Source of the DNA: a virus
Direction: 5' to 3' (one strand)
Virus genome (UHGV): UHGV-0032033
DNA: 53,461 bases
The notes below the pieces were generated by a model. It ran no database searches, was not told the DNA's origin, and worked only from the letters and a program-made list of their open reading frames with translations. Made by a program: the position numbers and the translations under genes. Of this stretch, positions 13,026 through 52,526 are shown one piece after another. Each line of letters starts with the position of its first letter. Positions within the stretch are counted from its first letter, which is position 1.

Positions 13026-14144
13026 TTACAAAATGGAATATTCAGGGTAATAAACAAAGCGCCCGATCTCCCCATAATCAGGACTGTAAATTATTACCGC
13101 AGCCAGACGCCGCGACCGCCAGCCGCCATTCGTTGAATAAGCGTCTTTGCCCGCTAACGTGCCGTGATGTTCTACGATCCCTAACGATGTTTCTACAACA
13201 GACTGGTGATGAAGATGGCCCGTATGAGCGTAAACCGCCGCCGACTTGCCGAAATCCTCCCGCCAGTCAGAGATGCAGGCAGCTAACAAATTTTCGGGTT
13301 TTTTGATAGTGTGACCGTGATGATAGGCAAGGAATGTTTTGCCGTACTGTGTGTGGTGGACGATAGCAGGGGACACGTCAACCGTCACGCGCGGTTCATC
13401 TTCGTAAAAAGCAGCCAGCGCCGCACGTAGCCAAATCATCCCTGATTGATCATGATTTCCGCTAAGCACCTGGATCTCGACATCCTTATGATTTAGCAAC
13501 ATCTTCCCGACAGCACGCCGGACCGACCGGATCGCCACGTAAACAAGTTTTGCGTAGCGTGAATCACAATCCAAAACGTGATTACTTGATGGCGTCACTG
13601 GTAACAGTCCGTCAGTGTGGAGCACATCCCCGCCTAACAGCAAAACAGCTTTTTCAGACATCGGTGCAGCGCCTACCGCGTAGTCGAAGAAATCATTTAG
13701 CACGCGCTCAGCGATCCCAGTGTCGTAGCTCTCGCCGCATTCTGCCTTGTGAGCAAGCGCCCCGATATGCAGATCAAATACCGGATAAAGGGCCAGGCTT
13801 TTTTGGAAATCAATTTCCGGCACTGGCACGGCCTCCGCGCGGGGTATTTCTTCCGTGAATGCATCACAAGCCGATTGCATTAGCCTTTCCATTTCATCGC
13901 GATCACGGGCTGTTTTAATCCAGCGCATAATCACATTGCCATCCTTATCGACGAGCAATGACTCACCATTGACGCCAAAACCCGGCGCGCGACGCGTGGA
14001 TATTAAACCGCGTTTCGCCAACCGTGCGCCCAGGCGTTCGACGTTGCGTTTTGCCATGCCATATTTTTCTGCTATTTGCTTGTAAGTTTTCCCCTTGTTG
14101 TACTCAGCGATCAGTTCCTCATCGCTGATCTTTCTTTGTGACAT
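13026..14144 (-). CDS. HTH domain fused to calcineurin-like metallophosphoesterase
   Basis: N-terminal HTH (TYKQIAEKYGMAKRNVERLGARLAKRGLI); C-terminal phosphoesterase motifs DLHIG, GGDVLHTD, LSGNHD, HTGHLHH; occupies helicase-loader position between initiator and DnaB. Confidence 0.6.
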   Translation of the reverse strand: MSQRKISDEELIAEYNKGKTYKQIAEKYGMAKRNVERLGARLAKRGLISTRRAPGFGVNGESLLVDKDGNVIMRWIKTARDRDEMERLMQSACDAFTEEIPRAEAVPVPEIDFQKSLALYPVFDLHIGALAHKAECGESYDTGIAERVLNDFFDYAVGAAPMSEKAVLLLGGDVLHTDGLLPVTPSSNHVLDCDSRYAKLVYVAIRSVRRAVGKMLLNHKDVEIQVLSGNHDQSGMIWLRAALAAFYEDEPRVTVDVSPAIVHHTQYGKTFLAYHHGHTIKKPENLLAACISDWREDFGKSAAVYAHTGHLHHQSVVETSLGIVEHHGTLAGKDAYSTNGGWRSRRLAAVIIYSPDYGEIGRFVYYPEYSIL

Positions 14145-16909: not shown

Positions 16910-16938
16910 TTGACTCGATGTTTTACGGGGCGTATATT
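16910..16938 (+). promoter_or_regulatory. near-consensus sigma70 promoter for rightward early operon (pL-equivalent)
   Basis: TTGACT - 17 nt - TATATT; preceded by motif AGGTATACAAAATGG; followed by ~340-nt leader before first ORF. Confidence 0.6.
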
Positions 16939-24585: not shown

Positions 24586-24744
24586 AGTTTACAAAATGGC
24601 GTCATTGCGTGATGCGGATCACATAATGGCGCTTTTTGCCTTGTTTGGGGGTATCCATTTTGTATACTTCAAGCAAACAAAATGCTCTTTAAAAATCCGG
24701 CAGCGCTGAAATGCGTAGAAATCACCTGAAAAGGAGAGAGCATT

Positions 24745-30707: not shown

Positions 30708-30804
30708 TGTGATCTGCATCACGAGGTATACAAAATGGCATTGTTTTGGCAGTGCCATTTTGTTATAAAGAGGCTGAAGAGAGAACGATACGGAGGGTAG
30801 AAAA

Positions 30805-46698: not shown

Positions 46699-47112
46699 TT
46701 ATTTGATTCTAACAATATCAATAAAACCGTTACCTAAATCGACAATTGCGTGATTTTTTGCGCCAGCGCCGCCTTCATTAAAAATTCTTTCAGCGAAAGC
46801 AACTTTATTTGCTTTACACTCGTTAGCTATCCTGTTTTTTATTTCGCTATTGTTTTCAAAGACTACGCTTACAGCAGCCTCGTTTACAAGGCCATAATTA
46901 AACCAACGAGCATAAACTGGTTTACCTTCAAAAATTTTATCAATTGCCTTAAAAAGAATTGTGGGTGCGGCTGGTTCTTTTTTGATCATGTCGTGATATG
47001 CGGCTACATGGTTTGCCACTTCTTCACAGTTAATGTTTATGGCCTCGTTAGCGTTCGCGTTAAATGCCAGTGCAGTAATCACAGCAAGTACCATTTTTGC
47101 TAACCGTTTCAT
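46699..47112 (-). CDS. secreted (signal-peptide) protein, reverse-strand moron between tail chaperone and tape measure
   Basis: N-terminal signal peptide MKRLAKMVLAVITALAFNANA; two Cys; AT-rich flanks; opposite orientation to tail genes. Confidence 0.6.
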   Translation of the reverse strand: MKRLAKMVLAVITALAFNANANEAININCEEVANHVAAYHDMIKKEPAAPTILFKAIDKIFEGKPVYARWFNYGLVNEAAVSVVFENNSEIKNRIANECKANKVAFAERIFNEGGAGAKNHAIVDLGNGFIDIVRIK

Positions 47113-47414
47113 AATTAACCCCTGTAATTATTCTGATTTGCTAAATGCTTCCTTTAACTTAGTTATACACGCATATTGTTTATTTTTTAAGTGCTTTTAA
47201 CATTTCTTCGATAAGGTCCGCATAGCGTTCATATTCGTTGGGACGGTAGTTTACGTTTCTCATTTTCTTATCCTCTTTCACTTCCTCCGGGACATCCGGC
47301 CTTCCTGCATCTCTTCTATCTTTCTCTACATCATCTATACAAAACGGCATCGTTAAAATAAAGACATTTTGTATAAAATAGATACATAGATCACATTTTG
47401 CATGAGGTTAAATC

Positions 47415-49757
47415 ATGGCTACCAGTGTAGGCACAATTTATTACGAAGTTGACGCAAAAACAGGACAACTTCTTGTAGCACAACGACAGGCAGACCAAGC
47501 CTTTGACCGTATAGAGCGCGGTGCTAAACAGGCCGATCGCCAGGTAAACACACTGAAAACATCAATCAAAGCACTGACCAGGGTTATCCATCTGCTAATT
47601 GCTGCCGAGGCCGTTAGACAGTTTATGGAAATGGCAGAGCAGGCCAAAATGCTACGCGTCAAAATCAAAATGCTGACAGGCGACGCGGAATCTGCCGGGC
47701 GGGTTTTTGATGGTCTGAAAGAAATATCCAGGGAGACGGGGCAGAGCCTGAAAGATACTGGCGAATTATGGCAAGGCCTGGCTATCTCACTAAAAAACAC
47801 CTCCGCTACGGAAGGGCAATTGCTTAACCTGGTTGGCACCATTCAGAAGATGGGCGCGTTAGGGGGCGCGTCAGCAGAGCAAATGTCAAACTCTATGCGC
47901 CAGTTCCGACAGTCTATTGACGGCGGCGTACTTCGCGCAGAAGAATTCAACAGCTTGCTTGAAAATACGCCGACCATCGTACAAACAATGGCCCGCAAGA
48001 TGGGATTATCAATGGGCCAGTTCCGCGCCGAAATGCTGGACGGCAAGATCACAGCGGAAAGGATGGTTAACGCAATCCAGGCGGCTACGCAGGAAACAAA
48101 CGAGCAGTTCGCACAGTTGCCGCGCACATCCGGCATGGCTATCAATGAACTAAAAGTCGAGGTAATGGGTCTGGTGGAACAACTGGACGATCTTTTCGGT
48201 GTATCAGATGGCGTAGTCTCAGCTATCGACTTGATCACAAAAGGAGTTAATGGGTTAGGTGAGGGCGCTAAATTCGCTAAAACCTGCTTTGATACGCTCA
48301 AAACGGCTGGTAGCGAATTCATCGACATGTTTGATGATGTGGCTGTGAAGGCTGGCGAGGTGGCAGAGAAGATCATCGCAATGGTGACGCCAATCAAGGC
48401 GCTAATGGATGGCTATAAATGGATGAAGGAGGTAGTAGGAGAGCAAACCGACGAATATAACAGCAACTACGAGAAGAAATACGGGAAGACCGTTGGCAAG
48501 GTCATGCAACTACAGGATGATCTGACCGCAGCAATCCAGGCTACAGAAGAAGCAAGGAAAAATGAACAGAATGCTGCCAATGACGGAGCGATTACCGGAT
48601 TCGACAAGCCAGTAGACAAGCCGAAAAAACAAAAAAAAGAGAAGAAATCGGAAGCCGATCGGCTTGGTGATAAAGGCATTAGCGTTTCTGACCAGTACAA
48701 TAAAGACGCAGCAGCTATGCGCAAAGCATTAGAGAACGGCAAGGCCATTGATGCTGCATTCGCCCAGGGTAAAATCACACTCCTTGAGTACCGCGCCGCG
48801 CAAAAAGGGATCGGCAAAGAACTGAAAGAAGAATTAGCGCAGATCCCGGCAGATGAACTGCGTGATAAATGGTCGCAAATAGTTAGCCCGATGGACCAGC
48901 TAAAAGGAGAGGTTGACCCCATCCAGCAGGCGCAAAATGAATGGGCCATCCGTAAGCAAATGTTGTTAGATCTGAACGCATCAGAGACACAAATCAGGGC
49001 CGAACAACTACAGCATGAACGGACCATTACTAACCTTAAGTGGGAGCAATGGCAGGCGCAAAGCGATACCAACGGCCTTATAGGTGATTGCGTGAATGGC
49101 CTCAAAGGCGGTATGAGCAATGCGCTTGTCGGCCTGCTTAACGGTACTCAATCATTGAGCGATGTTTTTGCTAACTTAGGGAGCAATATACTAGGGAACA
49201 TCGGCAACAGGCTTTCTGACATAGCAGCCGACTGGATAGCAGATCAGATCATGATGGAGACGCAAAGCAAGGCAACGCAGGCCAGCACAACGGCAAGCGC
49301 GGTAGCCGCTCAGGGTAGCATCGCTGCGGCAGCGGCCCCGGCAGCGGCGGCGACAGCGGCATCAACTGGCGGTAGCTGGGCGGCGGCTGGCTCGGCGGCG
49401 CTTACTGCGATCATGTCGCTGGCAACATCCATTTTCGGCGGCGGGCGCTTTAATGGTGGTAGCGTAATTGGTGGCAATATGTACCGCGTCGGGGAACATA
49501 ACAGGCCGGAGCTATTCCAGACGTCTAACGGCAACCAATACATGATCCCCGGCGAGAATGGCAGGGTTATCCCGGGGCGTGATATTGGCGGCGGCGGCGG
49601 TATCAGTATGCCTGTTTACATCGACATTCAAACCACAAACGGATTTAGTGACGAAGACACACGCAGACTTGAACAGACAATGGAACGTGTAGCCATGAAA
49701 ATGATAACAAGGGAATCGCAAAGACCTGGCGGGATGTTGCAACCGCGCCGCAAATAA
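47415..49757 (+). CDS. tail tape measure protein
   Basis: 780 aa, alpha-helical N-terminal two thirds, Gly/Ala-rich C-terminal region; position between chaperone and M. Confidence 0.85.
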   Translation: MATSVGTIYYEVDAKTGQLLVAQRQADQAFDRIERGAKQADRQVNTLKTSIKALTRVIHLLIAAEAVRQFMEMAEQAKMLRVKIKMLTGDAESAGRVFDGLKEISRETGQSLKDTGELWQGLAISLKNTSATEGQLLNLVGTIQKMGALGGASAEQMSNSMRQFRQSIDGGVLRAEEFNSLLENTPTIVQTMARKMGLSMGQFRAEMLDGKITAERMVNAIQAATQETNEQFAQLPRTSGMAINELKVEVMGLVEQLDDLFGVSDGVVSAIDLITKGVNGLGEGAKFAKTCFDTLKTAGSEFIDMFDDVAVKAGEVAEKIIAMVTPIKALMDGYKWMKEVVGEQTDEYNSNYEKKYGKTVGKVMQLQDDLTAAIQATEEARKNEQNAANDGAITGFDKPVDKPKKQKKEKKSEADRLGDKGISVSDQYNKDAAAMRKALENGKAIDAAFAQGKITLLEYRAAQKGIGKELKEELAQIPADELRDKWSQIVSPMDQLKGEVDPIQQAQNEWAIRKQMLLDLNASETQIRAEQLQHERTITNLKWEQWQAQSDTNGLIGDCVNGLKGGMSNALVGLLNGTQSLSDVFANLGSNILGNIGNRLSDIAADWIADQIMMETQSKATQASTTASAVAAQGSIAAAAAPAAAATAASTGGSWAAAGSAALTAIMSLATSIFGGGRFNGGSVIGGNMYRVGEHNRPELFQTSNGNQYMIPGENGRVIPGRDIGGGGGISMPVYIDIQTTNGFSDEDTRRLEQTMERVAMKMITRESQRPGGMLQPRRK

Positions 49758-49759
49758 CA

Positions 49760-49790
49760 CTAAGGCCGCTATAAGCGGCCTTTATTTTAC
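49760..49790. terminator. bidirectional hairpin terminator after tape measure gene
   Basis: aggccgct-ataa-gcggcct followed by TTATTTT; convergent gene ends on both sides. Confidence 0.7.
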
Positions 49791-50074
49791 ATGGTAAGGA
49801 TATAAATTAAACAGCACAGGAATGCGGGCGCGGCGAAGTCGCAAACGCTAGCCATATTCCATGCTTTTGGTAAAAAACCACCATACCACGGCATTCTTTC
49901 TCGTTTCCCTCCGCAAAATTCCGCTATGTAACGATATTCAGCCTGTGTGTGTTCCCGCGCAAAAAAGAATGTACATCCAATCAGGCCGCCAGTGAGATAA
50001 TCACCAGTAAGCAGGCCGATAACAACCTGTATAGTCGCCGCAGCCAGTGCGTGACCAATAACGGTTAAATCCAT
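49787..50074 (-). CDS. reverse-strand moron: small membrane protein (95 aa)
   Basis: Three hydrophobic segments; last gene of 4-gene minus-strand operon. Confidence 0.5.
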   Translation of the reverse strand: MDLTVIGHALAAATIQVVIGLLTGDYLTGGLIGCTFFFAREHTQAEYRYIAEFCGGKRERMPWYGGFLPKAWNMASVCDFAAPAFLCCLIYILTM

Positions 50075-50076
50075 CG

Positions 50077-50262
50077 TTAATCCTCCCGATCGTTCTCAAA
50101 TGTGCCATCTACAAATTTTTGCAGCCCGGCGATAAGTTGTGTTGCCTGCGATTTTTCAATTACTATGGTTTCAGTCCCCATAAGTTCGGTTATCCACAGC
50201 CGACCATCCTCATCAAGATCTAACCTAACTCCGTAACATAACTCTGTTTCGTCAATAATCAT
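50077..50262 (-). CDS. reverse-strand moron: small acidic protein (61 aa)
   Basis: MIIDETELCYGVRLDLDEDGRLWITEL...; stop abuts next ATG. Confidence 0.45.
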   Translation of the reverse strand: MIIDETELCYGVRLDLDEDGRLWITELMGTETIVIEKSQATQLIAGLQKFVDGTFENDRED

Positions 50263-50371
50263 TTTTCCTCCTATAATCTTCCGTTACGTGCGACGTAACC
50301 CCTGCCGAACATCACTAACCAGATGTTCCAGATCTCCCGCTAAGTATATTTCTCCTCCTCCATATTCCACC

Positions 50372-50626
50372 TCACTTATGAGCGCCTTTCACTCCGCAAT
50401 GACGGTTGTATTCCAGGTGATCGATAATTAACCAAATATTCAAATCTTCACTGAACAGCCGCCAGTCAGGATTGATATCGAATTTAAAGCCATAACCATC
50501 ACGTAATTTTTTGGGGCGGGCTTCTTTTTTCAGGAAGGCGTTAAGCAACTTCTTGCCTTTCTTGATTACCCGTTCCTGTGCATTCTTTTGTGCTTTCAGG
50601 TTTTTTTCGATAGTTACCAGTTTCAT
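50372..50626 (-). CDS. reverse-strand moron: Lys-rich small protein (84 aa)
   Basis: RBS ggggtgag; basic N-terminal half (KAQKNAQERVIKKGKKLLNAFLKKEARPKK). Confidence 0.5.
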   Translation of the reverse strand: MKLVTIEKNLKAQKNAQERVIKKGKKLLNAFLKKEARPKKLRDGYGFKFDINPDWRLFSEDLNIWLIIDHLEYNRHCGVKGAHK

Positions 50627-50643
50627 AACTCACCCCATCGTCC

Positions 50644-50799
50644 TTAGTTAAGCGCCCTCAGGAAGAAATCCCGGTATTCATCATCCTTCGCGTTCATCAT
50701 GAATTGACCGTATTTGAATGCGTCGTCGAAACCCTTAACAATTGCTACTTCCACTTGCTCGAATGCGTTGTTTAGCATCACTACTACATAGCTACTCAT
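50644..50799 (-). CDS. reverse-strand moron: small protein (51 aa), first gene of minus-strand operon
   Basis: RBS gtgagg; MSSYVVVMLNNAFEQVEVAIVKGFDDAFKYGQFMMNAKDDEYRDFFLRALN; below track cut-off. Confidence 0.4.
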   Translation of the reverse strand: MSSYVVVMLNNAFEQVEVAIVKGFDDAFKYGQFMMNAKDDEYRDFFLRALN

Positions 50800-50969
50800 T
50801 TTTGGGCCTCACTTGCTGGTACCGCTTTTCTTCTTGCTTCCTGTATACAGCTTGTTGCTTCATGTGTGAATCCATATTGTAAACTAGCTATAATTCTTGT
50901 GACGAATATCTCATTTTTCGCGTAGAAGCGCGTAAAGATATATACAAAATGTAACTTACAGGAGGGGGT

Positions 50970-51323
50970 ATGCCGGAAGTGTTCAGATGGACACCACAGA
51001 GAAGCTACAGCGTAAACAGTGAGCCTAACGTGTCCGTTATCAAGCTGGGCGATGGCTATGAACAGCGCCAGACAAAAGGGATTAATCCACTACTTGACAG
51101 CTATACGCTGGTCTTTAAAGGTACGAGCGCCGGATGCGGTGACGCCGGAAACGTGGCGCTCCAGGTTGACGCATTTTTAAGAGCACGTTGCGCGGTCGAG
51201 GCGTTTTACTGGACGCCATCTACAGACGGAGTGAAAAGGCTTTTTGTATGCCGAAAGTGGAGCATGGCGAAAGACGGCCCGGTATGCACTCTGAATGCAA
51301 CGTTTGAACAAGTTATCAATTAA
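50970..51323 (+). CDS. minor tail protein M-like
   Basis: 117 aa; FRWTPQRSYSV...KLGDGYEQRQ...FYWTP...CRKWS...ATFEQVIN colinear with lambda gpM (FRWKV...RFGDGYSQR...FLWTP...CAKWS...AEFEQVVN). Confidence 0.85.
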   Translation: MPEVFRWTPQRSYSVNSEPNVSVIKLGDGYEQRQTKGINPLLDSYTLVFKGTSAGCGDAGNVALQVDAFLRARCAVEAFYWTPSTDGVKRLFVCRKWSMAKDGPVCTLNATFEQVIN

Positions 51324-51336
51324 TGGAGAAGTCAAT

Positions 51337-51522
51337 ATGTATGCTATTTGTGTAGTTGACCGCACGGGCGCTTTTACATTATTTGACGACTATGAAATCA
51401 AAGATCTTACCGTAAAGGCTGACAATGGCGAGATCTGGTATCTTCATGACGTTGGTGACGGGTATGTTGGGTGCAGGTCGAGAGAGGGAAGGGAAGTTTT
51501 ATTTTTGGTTGATAGCGTATAA
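51337..51522 (+). CDS. hypothetical small protein (61 aa) inserted after M
   Basis: RBS ggag; MYAICVVDRTGAFTLFDDYEIKDLTVKADNGEIWYLHDVGDG... Confidence 0.4.
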   Translation: MYAICVVDRTGAFTLFDDYEIKDLTVKADNGEIWYLHDVGDGYVGCRSREGREVLFLVDSV

Positions 51523-51622: not shown

Positions 51623-51871
51623 TCATAACGCCCCCTTCAAATATGTCAATCCCTTATCAGTGACGAATGAATGGTTTACCTGGTTTTCATCCGTCATGAT
51701 GATGAATAGCTTTTCCTGTAGGTATTTCGCTTTTGGGTACAGCGTTAAACAGACCTGGTACAAAACCCCGCGCTCAATCAGCAAATCAATAAATTCGTGC
51801 TCATGATAACCGATAAGGCGGGCGGCCTGTTTCAACGTGTACACATAGTCACCGTGATTGCGCCGCGTCAT
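51623..51871 (-). CDS. reverse-strand moron: small putative DNA-binding protein (82 aa)
   Basis: HTH-like segment YTLKQAARLIGYHEHEFIDLLIERGVLY. Confidence 0.45.
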   Translation of the reverse strand: MTRRNHGDYVYTLKQAARLIGYHEHEFIDLLIERGVLYQVCLTLYPKAKYLQEKLFIIMTDENQVNHSFVTDKGLTYLKGAL

Positions 51872-51880
51872 ATTGCCACC

Positions 51881-52228
51881 TTATTTGCCGAACGCTCCCA
51901 GGTTGTCGATACAGAAATCTTTTGCCGCTTTTTCGTATTCACGTTTTGCTTGCGGATCATCTGCCGGGAAACCTTTTGCGTGTATTTCACCAGGACAAGC
52001 CTGATCCATAGAGTTGGCAAAATTAACATTGAAGTTAACATTAATATCTTTCGGGTTCATATCTTCCACCTCATCAACTATCTGTACCGGATTAGCAGCA
52101 TATTTCACTGGATGGCCTAAACTACATTCAAGAATCCTGCCTTCTTCCAGGGCTACTTCTTCGCTATCAAATAATCCGAAACACTCCTTGCTACCACTTA
52201 ACCACACATCAAGACTGTATTTTTTCAT
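51881..52228 (-). CDS. reverse-strand moron: acidic protein (116 aa)
   Basis: RBS gagg; N-terminus paralogous to 52209..52397 (ECFGLFDSEEVALEEG vs KVIALYDDEGEALVDA). Confidence 0.5.
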   Translation of the reverse strand: MKKYSLDVWLSGSKECFGLFDSEEVALEEGRILECSLGHPVKYAANPVQIVDEVEDMNPKDINVNFNVNFANSMDQACPGEIHAKGFPADDPQAKREYEKAAKDFCIDNLGAFGK

Positions 52229-52397
52229 TTTTGTTAGCCTCATATTTGACAGGTTCGATCTGGTATCCCAAAAGGCGGTCATCCTCAACAAGTAAAAGCG
52301 CGTCAACCAATGCTTCCCCCTCGTCGTCATACAGGGCGATAACCTTTTCCCTACCGTCTGTCATGAATACCGTCAACTTCCATAGCTTTTCAGTCAT
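52209..52397 (-). CDS. reverse-strand moron: small acidic protein (63 aa)
   Basis: RBS ggaggtg; MTEKLWKLTVFMTDGREKVIALYDDEGEALVDALLLVEDDRLLGYQIEP... Confidence 0.5.
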   Translation of the reverse strand: MTEKLWKLTVFMTDGREKVIALYDDEGEALVDALLLVEDDRLLGYQIEPVKYEANKNEKIQS

Positions 52398-52526
52398 AAC
52401 ACACCTCCGCGCCATTTTGTTAACTGTGCTTCCGTTTGAGTAAAATATACATATTGTAAAAACCGCGATCAATCCATTTTGGTATGATTTAGCGTGACTT
52501 AGATCACAAAATGACAAGGTGAGAAA

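Follow-up and report, generated by a model that had tools for sequence, protein, structure and literature searches.

The stretch analysed here, the virus genome UHGV-0032033 (53,461 nt, the whole of which is called the window below), carries a group of small reverse-strand genes between its tape-measure gene and its M-like minor tail gene. In phage lambda the tape-measure gene directly abuts M. A first-pass annotation of the window had described at this place an inserted operon of four reverse-strand genes with regulatory DNA of its own, and had proposed that it is lysogen-expressed cargo with exclusion, toxin-antitoxin-like or conversion functions. We refer to the whole insert as the island and to its genes, in the order in which they would be read, as A, B, C and D; a fifth cassette, F, lies between B and C. 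The features of the locus are as follows.

47415-49757, plus strand: tape-measure gene (PF20155), flanking the island.
49762-49782, both strands: bidirectional intrinsic terminator, common to the tape-measure gene (plus strand) and the island (minus strand).
49787-50074, minus strand: gene D, 95 amino acids (aa), predicted small membrane protein, phrog_1443; a distal, optional cassette.
50077-50262, minus strand: gene C, 61 aa, acidic, phrog_13627.
50271-50363, minus strand: pseudogene of cassette F, a Trp-rich micro open reading frame of 30 aa with an amber codon at codon 8.
50372-50626, minus strand: gene B, 84 aa, basic, predicted RelE/ParE-superfamily fold, Pfam PF24732 (ParE_like).
50644-50799, minus strand: gene A, 51 aa, acidic, phrog_29810; candidate antitoxin or partner of B.
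50800-50969, between the divergent genes: conserved control region with motif copies, promoter-like pairs and a CRP-like dyad.
50970-51323, plus strand: M-like minor tail gene (PF05939), flanking the island.

The coordinates of the four minus-strand open reading frames (ORFs) of 51, 84, 61 and 95 aa were exactly confirmed, and the Shine-Dalgarno (SD) sequence claimed for each of them is legible in all four, as GAGG-7nt-ATG for A, GGGGTGAG-TT-ATG for B, AGGAGG-AAAA-ATG for C and GGGAGGA-TTAAC-ATG for D. Gene A lies upstream of B with a gap of 17 nt in the window and of 17-20 nt across loci. The predicted products are of contrasting charge: A is acidic (isoelectric point, pI, 4.46), B is the Lys-rich protein that had been described (Lys and Arg make up 20 of its 84 residues; pI 9.95) and C is indeed small and acidic (pI 4.05). 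For D, which had been called a three-helix membrane protein, we observed strong hydrophobic segments at about residues 3-24 and 74-95, but the third segment is weaker, and three helices are therefore not secure. The base composition of the island also sets it apart, with a guanine-plus-cytosine (GC) content of 41-47% across 49750-50950, lower than in the tape-measure gene (49-64%) and in M (49-52%), and the sign of the GC skew flips across the island.

We compared the locus in two sets of related loci, one of 32 loci seeded on B and one of 80 loci seeded on the M protein and hence unbiased towards the island; in the latter, M was at least 80% identical in 43 loci and about 65% identical in 37. 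Pooled ratios of nonsynonymous to synonymous polymorphism (pN/pS) across related loci were 0.083 for A, 0.109 for B, 0.18 for C, 0.14 for D, 0.096 for F and 0.18 for G, a further cassette found in relatives. These low values show that A, B, C, D, F and G are real protein-coding genes held under purifying selection. Frames that fail to be conserved, which the first-pass annotation had named among the results that would count against it, were the opposite of what was seen, as all four of its genes lie at 0.08-0.18.

The window region is about 80% identical to mEp021, mEp010, mEp044, mEp554 and related coliphages and 92-93% identical to prophages of Escherichia coli PAR, GN05505 and Ecol_244, and we place the window phage among the temperate siphoviruses (coliphages) of the mEp021/mEpimmI type. 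The mEpimmI phages are a recently described group, reported to be common in human gut E. coli, and neither the paper describing them nor its supplements mention the island genes (PMC11893012). A reverse-strand island of 681-1393 nt was present in all 43 loci with M at least 80% identical; B was found in every one of them and A in 41, so that B is the sole universal gene of the island. Neither A nor B was found in the 37 loci with M about 65% identical. There the tape-measure stop abuts the M start (gap of -1 to 2 nt) in about 18 of the 37, and the remaining ones carry unrelated single-gene inserts, either a forward 70-aa ORF, a reverse ORF of 75-79 aa or a reverse 132-aa ORF. The direct contact of the two genes in these distant relatives justifies the word 'inserted', although the insert is lineage-wide and not peculiar to the window phage. 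Since the island is present throughout one lineage while the more distant loci hold varied inserts or none, the tape-measure/M junction is a general insertion hot spot at which the mEpimmI lineage has a resident island.

The near-universal presence of A and B beside the tape-measure and tail-tip genes (41 and 43 of the 43 loci) could also be expected if they were core virion-assembly helpers such as tail chaperones. We regard this as highly improbable: the island lies on the strand opposite to the late operon and is low in GC, the predicted fold of B is of a toxin type (see below), B is frameshifted in the prophages of PAR and Ecol_244, and the mEpimmI paper is silent on both genes (PMC11893012).

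The view of the island as one four-gene unit did not survive the comparison, which revealed instead a mosaic of independently exchangeable cassettes. The cassettes seen were A, B, a 49-aa ORF overlapping the B stop, F, the 56-58-aa G, the 59-61-aa C family and D, and further a zinc-ribbon repeat protein in mEp021 and an HNH endonuclease in strain E21845; the smallest islands consist of A and B alone (e.g., locus L005). Homologues of A are confined to the mEpimmI group. Among 5426 complete E. coli genomes searched, 35 carried B and 34 of those 35 carried A. The B gene has several deep alleles, down to about 58% protein identity between them, and the window allele is at most 84% identical at the DNA level to B of any complete E. 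coli genome. The A gene of the window is 98% identical to that of strain PAR while B of PAR is only 79% identical, which shows recombination breakpoints inside the island.

The same locus, strand, control region and terminator were found in mEp021, mEp010, mEp044 and mEp554, and in mEp021 (PMC11893012) the counterparts of A and B are gp68 (51 aa; 86% identity) and gp67 (84 aa; 82% identity). The distal genes differ, being a zinc-ribbon repeat protein and a 157-aa ORF in mEp021, cassettes F, G and a C-family gene in mEp010, and a dead F followed by C and D in the window. All of mEp021 gp65-gp68 and their equivalents are annotated as 'hypothetical'. The HNH endonuclease gene of E. coli E21845 (locus L120, 1143-1625) overlaps the B stop, and gp65 and gp66 of mEp021 (locus L001) lie at the same site; the tape-measure/M hot spot is used by mobile nuclease genes as well.

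Cassette F, which the first-pass annotation missed, fills the 109-nt 'intergenic' stretch between B and C. Its copy in the window translates as MEEEKYT*REIWNIWLVMFGRGYVARNGRL*, a TGG codon having become TAG at codon 8, and in strain PAR it is frameshifted and degraded. It is intact in 19 loci (e.g., at 605-697 of the island in locus L019), with the consensus M[ED]DDKFTWREIWNIWQVMFARSYIARNGRL, and because it is kept in these loci with a pN/pS of 0.096 we consider it a real tiny protein where intact. The perfect 7-3-7 palindrome reported between the second and third genes is present, as GTTACGTGCGACGTAAC at 50283-50299, but it is part of the F coding sequence, in which it encodes G-Y-V-A-R-N-G, and not a regulatory element. 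In other lineages F encodes S-Y-I-A-R-N-G from different DNA and the palindrome is not conserved. Perfect palindromes with a 7-bp stem and a 3-nt loop occur 7 times in the window, and 54 times when loops of 0-8 nt are allowed. A role as operator or terminator was ruled out on this chance frequency, on the coding location and on the lack of conservation.

The first-pass annotation had left the four proteins without a family, whereas all four fall in PHROGs and B in a Pfam toxin family. Gene B matched PF24732 (ParE_like toxin domain) with 42.0 bits against a cut-off of 24.4 (E 9.2e-11), over profile positions 2-67 of 67, and the name given to its relatives by the Prokaryotic Genome Annotation Pipeline (PGAP) in RefSeq is 'ParE family toxin-like protein'. 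An AlphaFold2 (AF2) model of B built with four distant family members reached a predicted local distance difference test score (pLDDT) of 88.7, an earlier model from a shallow alignment (pLDDT 55) having been unusable. The model is a compact alpha/beta fold, with an N-terminal helix or helices packed on a 3-4-stranded antiparallel sheet as in the RelE/ParE superfamily, and its structural matches are RelE, HigB, YafQ, YoeB and ParE toxins. The structure prediction that had been suggested as a check was thus carried out for B and came back confident, the modelled fold being that of a RelE/ParE toxin, which gives the toxin-antitoxin-like option among the proposed cargo functions a basis in structure.

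Within the B family K40, R56 and N74 are invariant and H70, Y73 and W65 nearly so, a pattern compatible with a RelE/HigB-like site. When the family was aligned by hhalign to an E. coli HigB sequence, the C-terminal H..Y motif was aligned, at a score that was not significant. The family is tiny, with 8 representatives at E<=1e-3 among 1.84 billion representative proteins, a search in which no bridge to the canonical ParE or RelE Pfam families was found; a scan of one genome per bacterial species gave no relative of B. Four full-length distant relatives (P0105 and P0108-P0110) matched only PF24732 in Pfam. Searches of B and of two B alignments against the chains of the PDB gave no significant match to any solved toxin, and the sequence matches to phage baseplate gp33/gp34, EME1 and Rpo11 were rejected as chance-level (E >=0.26).

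The signals that bound the island were mostly as first described. The bidirectional terminator placed at about 49760-49790 lies at 49762-49782, with a 9-bp stem of which 6 pairs are GC, a 3-nt loop and T-runs on both sides; it was scored on both strands, and the annotations of mEp021 and mEp010 place a terminator at the same spot. At the other end, the 170 nt between A and M match coding DNA in their degree of conservation. This region carries the recurring motif that had been noticed, TACAAAATG (= CATTTTGTA), at 50943-50951 on the plus strand, 19 nt upstream of the M ATG. Exact copies of this motif number 10 in the window against 0.94 expected, which bears out the description of 50800-50969 as a divergent control region with a recurrent motif. 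A second copy, directed at A, lies at 50872-50882 on the minus strand, with one mismatch in the window and exact in most relatives. In most of the 44 distinct intergenic sequences the two positions are fixed, at 26-28 nt before the M ATG and 71-73 nt before the A ATG. For the island we found a promoter-like pair, GTCACA-16-TACAAT (50903-50876), and an alternative, TTCACA-17-TATACA (50870-50842), which is abutted by the motif in the same register as at the early-region promoter at 16910-16938 (TTGACT-17-TATATT); the count of promoter-like sites, 4 against 3.1 in shuffles, is not above that of shuffled sequence.

The exact copies of TACAAAATG lie at 13027, 16056, 16899, 17577, 21035 (minus strand), 24590, 24656 (minus), 30729, 47365 (minus) and 50943, with near-copies at 50872 (minus), 47337 and 52412-52514. 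The motif almost always heads a transcription unit and is directed into it; other sites are ahead of a CI-like repressor gene, beside the strong promoter at 16910-16938 and after an N-like gene, and it is found on both sides of all three reverse-strand islands of the tail module. No consistent -35 or -10 register was seen across all ten copies. A promoter element, an operator and an activator site are all candidates for its role. A CRP-like dyad, TGTGACGAATATCTCA, lies at 50898-50913 in the A/M region, where its form is TGTGA-N6-TCTCA. Dyads of the form TGTGATC-N4-RTCACG recur at 30708-30723, 24608-24623, 52493-52508 and about 47375-47395, often a few bases from TACAAAATG. Nothing at or near threshold was found in Rfam across 49400-51400. 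On the plus strand, within gene C and antisense to it, we noticed a terminator-like hairpin followed by a T-run at 50128-50146, and the annotation of mEp010 has a plus-strand terminator within its B gene; such hairpins might dampen late read-through across the island.

We then asked whether A and B make up a toxin-antitoxin pair. Their order, spacing, sizes and complementary charge fit such a layout. As in the type II systems of the RelE/ParE kind (RelBE, HigBA, YefM-YoeB, DinJ-YafQ, ParDE and PaaA2-ParE2), B has the predicted fold, the size and the basic charge of the toxin, and a small acidic ORF stands immediately upstream of it, as in most of these systems. For a short antitoxin devoid of a DNA-binding domain, PaaA2 is a precedent. 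The island differs from these systems in that B has no significant sequence match to the solved toxins, A belongs to no antitoxin family, B persists without A and the two do not covary. In favour of a pair, B is broken by a frameshift beside an intact A in the prophages of PAR and Ecol_244. A suspicion that B frequently decays while A is kept was dropped, as the partial BLAST matches in LSU61 and E21845 proved to be full-length divergent B alleles.

The competing possibility is that B acts by itself during infection, as a phage effector of RelE-type fold in need of no antitoxin. It could then be an mRNA endonuclease in host shut-off or in the control of transcript turnover, while A, C, D and F would be unrelated small accessory genes merely sharing a promoter. 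T4 RegB, an endoribonuclease with the RelE fold which a lytic phage uses without any antitoxin, would be the model for such a protein, although RegB was not among the structural matches of B and no sequence similarity to it was found. Several results weigh against the pairing of A with B. Intact B was found without A in two lineages, in E. coli UMNK88 (locus L006, B at NC_017641.1 1659386-1659640) and in the viral contigs of loci L016 and L022, and no copy of A is present anywhere in the UMNK88 genome. In these A-less variants the ATG of B stands exactly at the usual position of the A ATG, behind the same leader and promoter-like elements, and B itself is intact and of ordinary sequence. Because these natural variants keep an intact B, they argue against a strict toxin-antitoxin relationship. 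Nor did A and B covary (r = 0.14): a single A sequence occurs beside B alleles that share only 58-61% identity. Of the two proteins A is the better conserved, whereas in toxin-antitoxin pairs it is usually the toxin. A matched no antitoxin or DNA-binding family in Pfam, PADLOC or NCBIfam, and PADLOC-DB 2.0 gave no match at E<=1 for any of A, B, C and D.

The wider family points the same way. The four distant PF24732 members lie among small unannotated ORFs that all run in one direction, an arrangement typical of the early regions of lytic phages, and in one case a T7 gp0.4-like gene lies three genes downstream. None of their neighbours is related to A, and a comparison of A with the genes upstream of them gave no similarity. 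The closest viral structural matches of B are in the lytic jumbo phages RaK2 and fHe-Yen9-04. As to the timing of expression, TACAAAATG occurs also at early-region promoters, and the island promoter region shares both the motif and its register with the one at 16910-16938. On the other hand, A and B are adjacent, closely spaced, of complementary charge and co-present in 41 of the 43 loci, the island opposes the late operon and its moron features are those that usually mark prophage-expressed genes, and the lytic-phage contexts are few because the family itself is so small. On balance of this sequence and model evidence we consider the toxin-antitoxin-like model the single most likely one, at under 50%, and the stand-alone effector a serious rival, possible though doubtful. 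It is rather unlikely, in our estimate, that the argument extends further, such that PF24732 proteins are a small family of RelE-fold effectors used by phages without an antitoxin, B being a RegB-like RNase or translation modulator instead of an addiction toxin and A an independent, more strongly conserved protein with a target of its own.

In this phage group D was found only beside a window-type C, the C stop lies 2 nt ahead of the D ATG, the SD of D is formed by the last codons of C, and C is acidic while D is hydrophobic. These facts would suit a second two-gene module, in which C would for instance be the acidic partner of a holin-like protein or membrane toxin, or the regulator of an exclusion protein. 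The wider distribution of both genes speaks against it. Many islands that lack D have, at their tape-measure-proximal end, a C version of 59-60 aa with about 50% identity. Homologues of D (52-61% identity) follow directly after a P22-like tailspike gene (locus L033) and after the S74-type tail fibre gene of a P2-like Enterobacter prophage (locus L034), and in phage 21 (locus L036, OL657228.1 21291-21875) and many lambdoid phages they come after the side tail fibre gene and a 92-aa ORF. No C-like gene was seen beside D homologues in the P22-like, P2-like and lambdoid contexts, and C showed no similarity to the 92-aa neighbour in phage 21. A C-D module is accordingly a quite unlikely arrangement in our view. 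We consider D an independently mobile small membrane protein that tends to adjoin receptor-binding genes. This neighbourhood suggests, by association only, that D has to do with the envelope or with phage entry, for example in exclusion or conversion. The position of the D family in phage 21 and the lambdoid phages is where lambda has tfa.

As for known families, D had no match in Pfam, NCBIfam or PADLOC and fell only in phrog_1443, of unknown function; by sequence it is not a member of the HK97 gp15/YebO, Cor, SieA or GtrA exclusion and conversion families, and hydropathy alone speaks for its membrane character. The C family is common in the islands and has no detectable relative of known function. 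NCBIfam gave no match for any of A, B, C and D.

Taken together, we favour the explanation that the island is a resident moron island at the tape-measure/M junction, made up of a toxin-antitoxin-like A-B pair and envelope cargo, and put its probability at roughly 45%. Two of the features by which morons are recognised were observed, namely extra DNA between genes that are adjacent in related phages and a base composition (GC and skew) unlike that of the neighbours. The proposal of accessory cargo is therefore a reasonable one, partly supported: the opposite strand, the conserved control region, the common terminator, the low GC and the absence of anything at this place in about 18 of the 37 relatives stand in its favour, while the single-unit view that accompanied it does not hold. 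A promoter of its own would drive leftward transcription of the whole island as a single unit, antisense to the late operon, and expression would for that reason fall mainly in the lysogen, where late transcription is silent. B would be an inhibitor of growth or translation, a ribosome-dependent mRNA endonuclease of the RelE/HigB type being slightly likelier than a gyrase poison of the ParE type. In most phages the acidic A protein encoded just upstream would restrain B, as in a type II toxin-antitoxin or abortive-infection module, and from the inner membrane D would affect phage entry or the envelope, leading to exclusion or conversion.

Two described cases resemble this proposal, and serve as analogies, not as tests of it. 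In HK97, gp15 is a tail-operon moron acting as an exclusion protein (PMC3594210). Like the island, it is extra DNA in a lambda-like tail operon beside the tape-measure gene, with a differing GC content and signals of its own, which in the island are a terminator and promoter-like pairs, and the island includes a predicted small inner-membrane protein (D). It differs in lying between the tail chaperone and tape-measure genes and in belonging to the YebO family, whereas several genes are present here, at the tape-measure/M junction, and no resemblance of D to known exclusion proteins was detected. In phi80, the reverse gene taiEcA lies within the Q-driven late operon and interrupts it; the gene is expressed in the lysogen, and late read-through reduces this expression (PMC11364771). 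The regulatory logic of this taiEcA/atiEcA 'noncontiguous operon' is the same as the one proposed for the island, but TaiEcA is a 26-kDa tail-assembly inhibitor encoded before the packaging genes, and the island has no protein of that size or of known kinship to it.

As a prophage moron island that includes a RelE/ParE-fold gene, this one belongs to a familiar class, of which it is a so far uncharacterised case that Pfam and PGAP have partly annotated already, and it overturns no current ideas. Should A and B function as a toxin-antitoxin or abortive-infection module, and D in exclusion, the island would explain part of the fitness effect of this prophage group. It also offers a compact natural test-bed, in which cassettes of 30-95 aa are shuffled behind one predicted promoter, and for this reason single-cassette differences between near-identical phages could be matched to phenotypes. 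The A-less variants would be natural controls for whether a prophage protein of the RelE/ParE fold needs an antitoxin.

Some further features of the tail module may be mentioned. On the plus strand a 75-aa ORF at 51295-51522 begins within M, near its end, and is followed by the next bidirectional terminator; at this site several RefSeq prophages have no annotated gene, and mEp021 and mEp010 have one of 61 aa. Two more low-GC reverse-strand islands are present in the tail module, at 46699-47350 and 51623-52517. The former precedes the tape-measure gene and contains a 137-aa ORF, with a hydrophobic, signal-peptide-like N-terminus, and a 56-aa ORF. The latter lies between M and L and contains a KilAC antirepressor-like protein of 82 aa together with ORFs of 149 aa and 102 aa. 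Both islands have a divergent control region of their own that carries TACAAAATG, and their contents vary between relatives.

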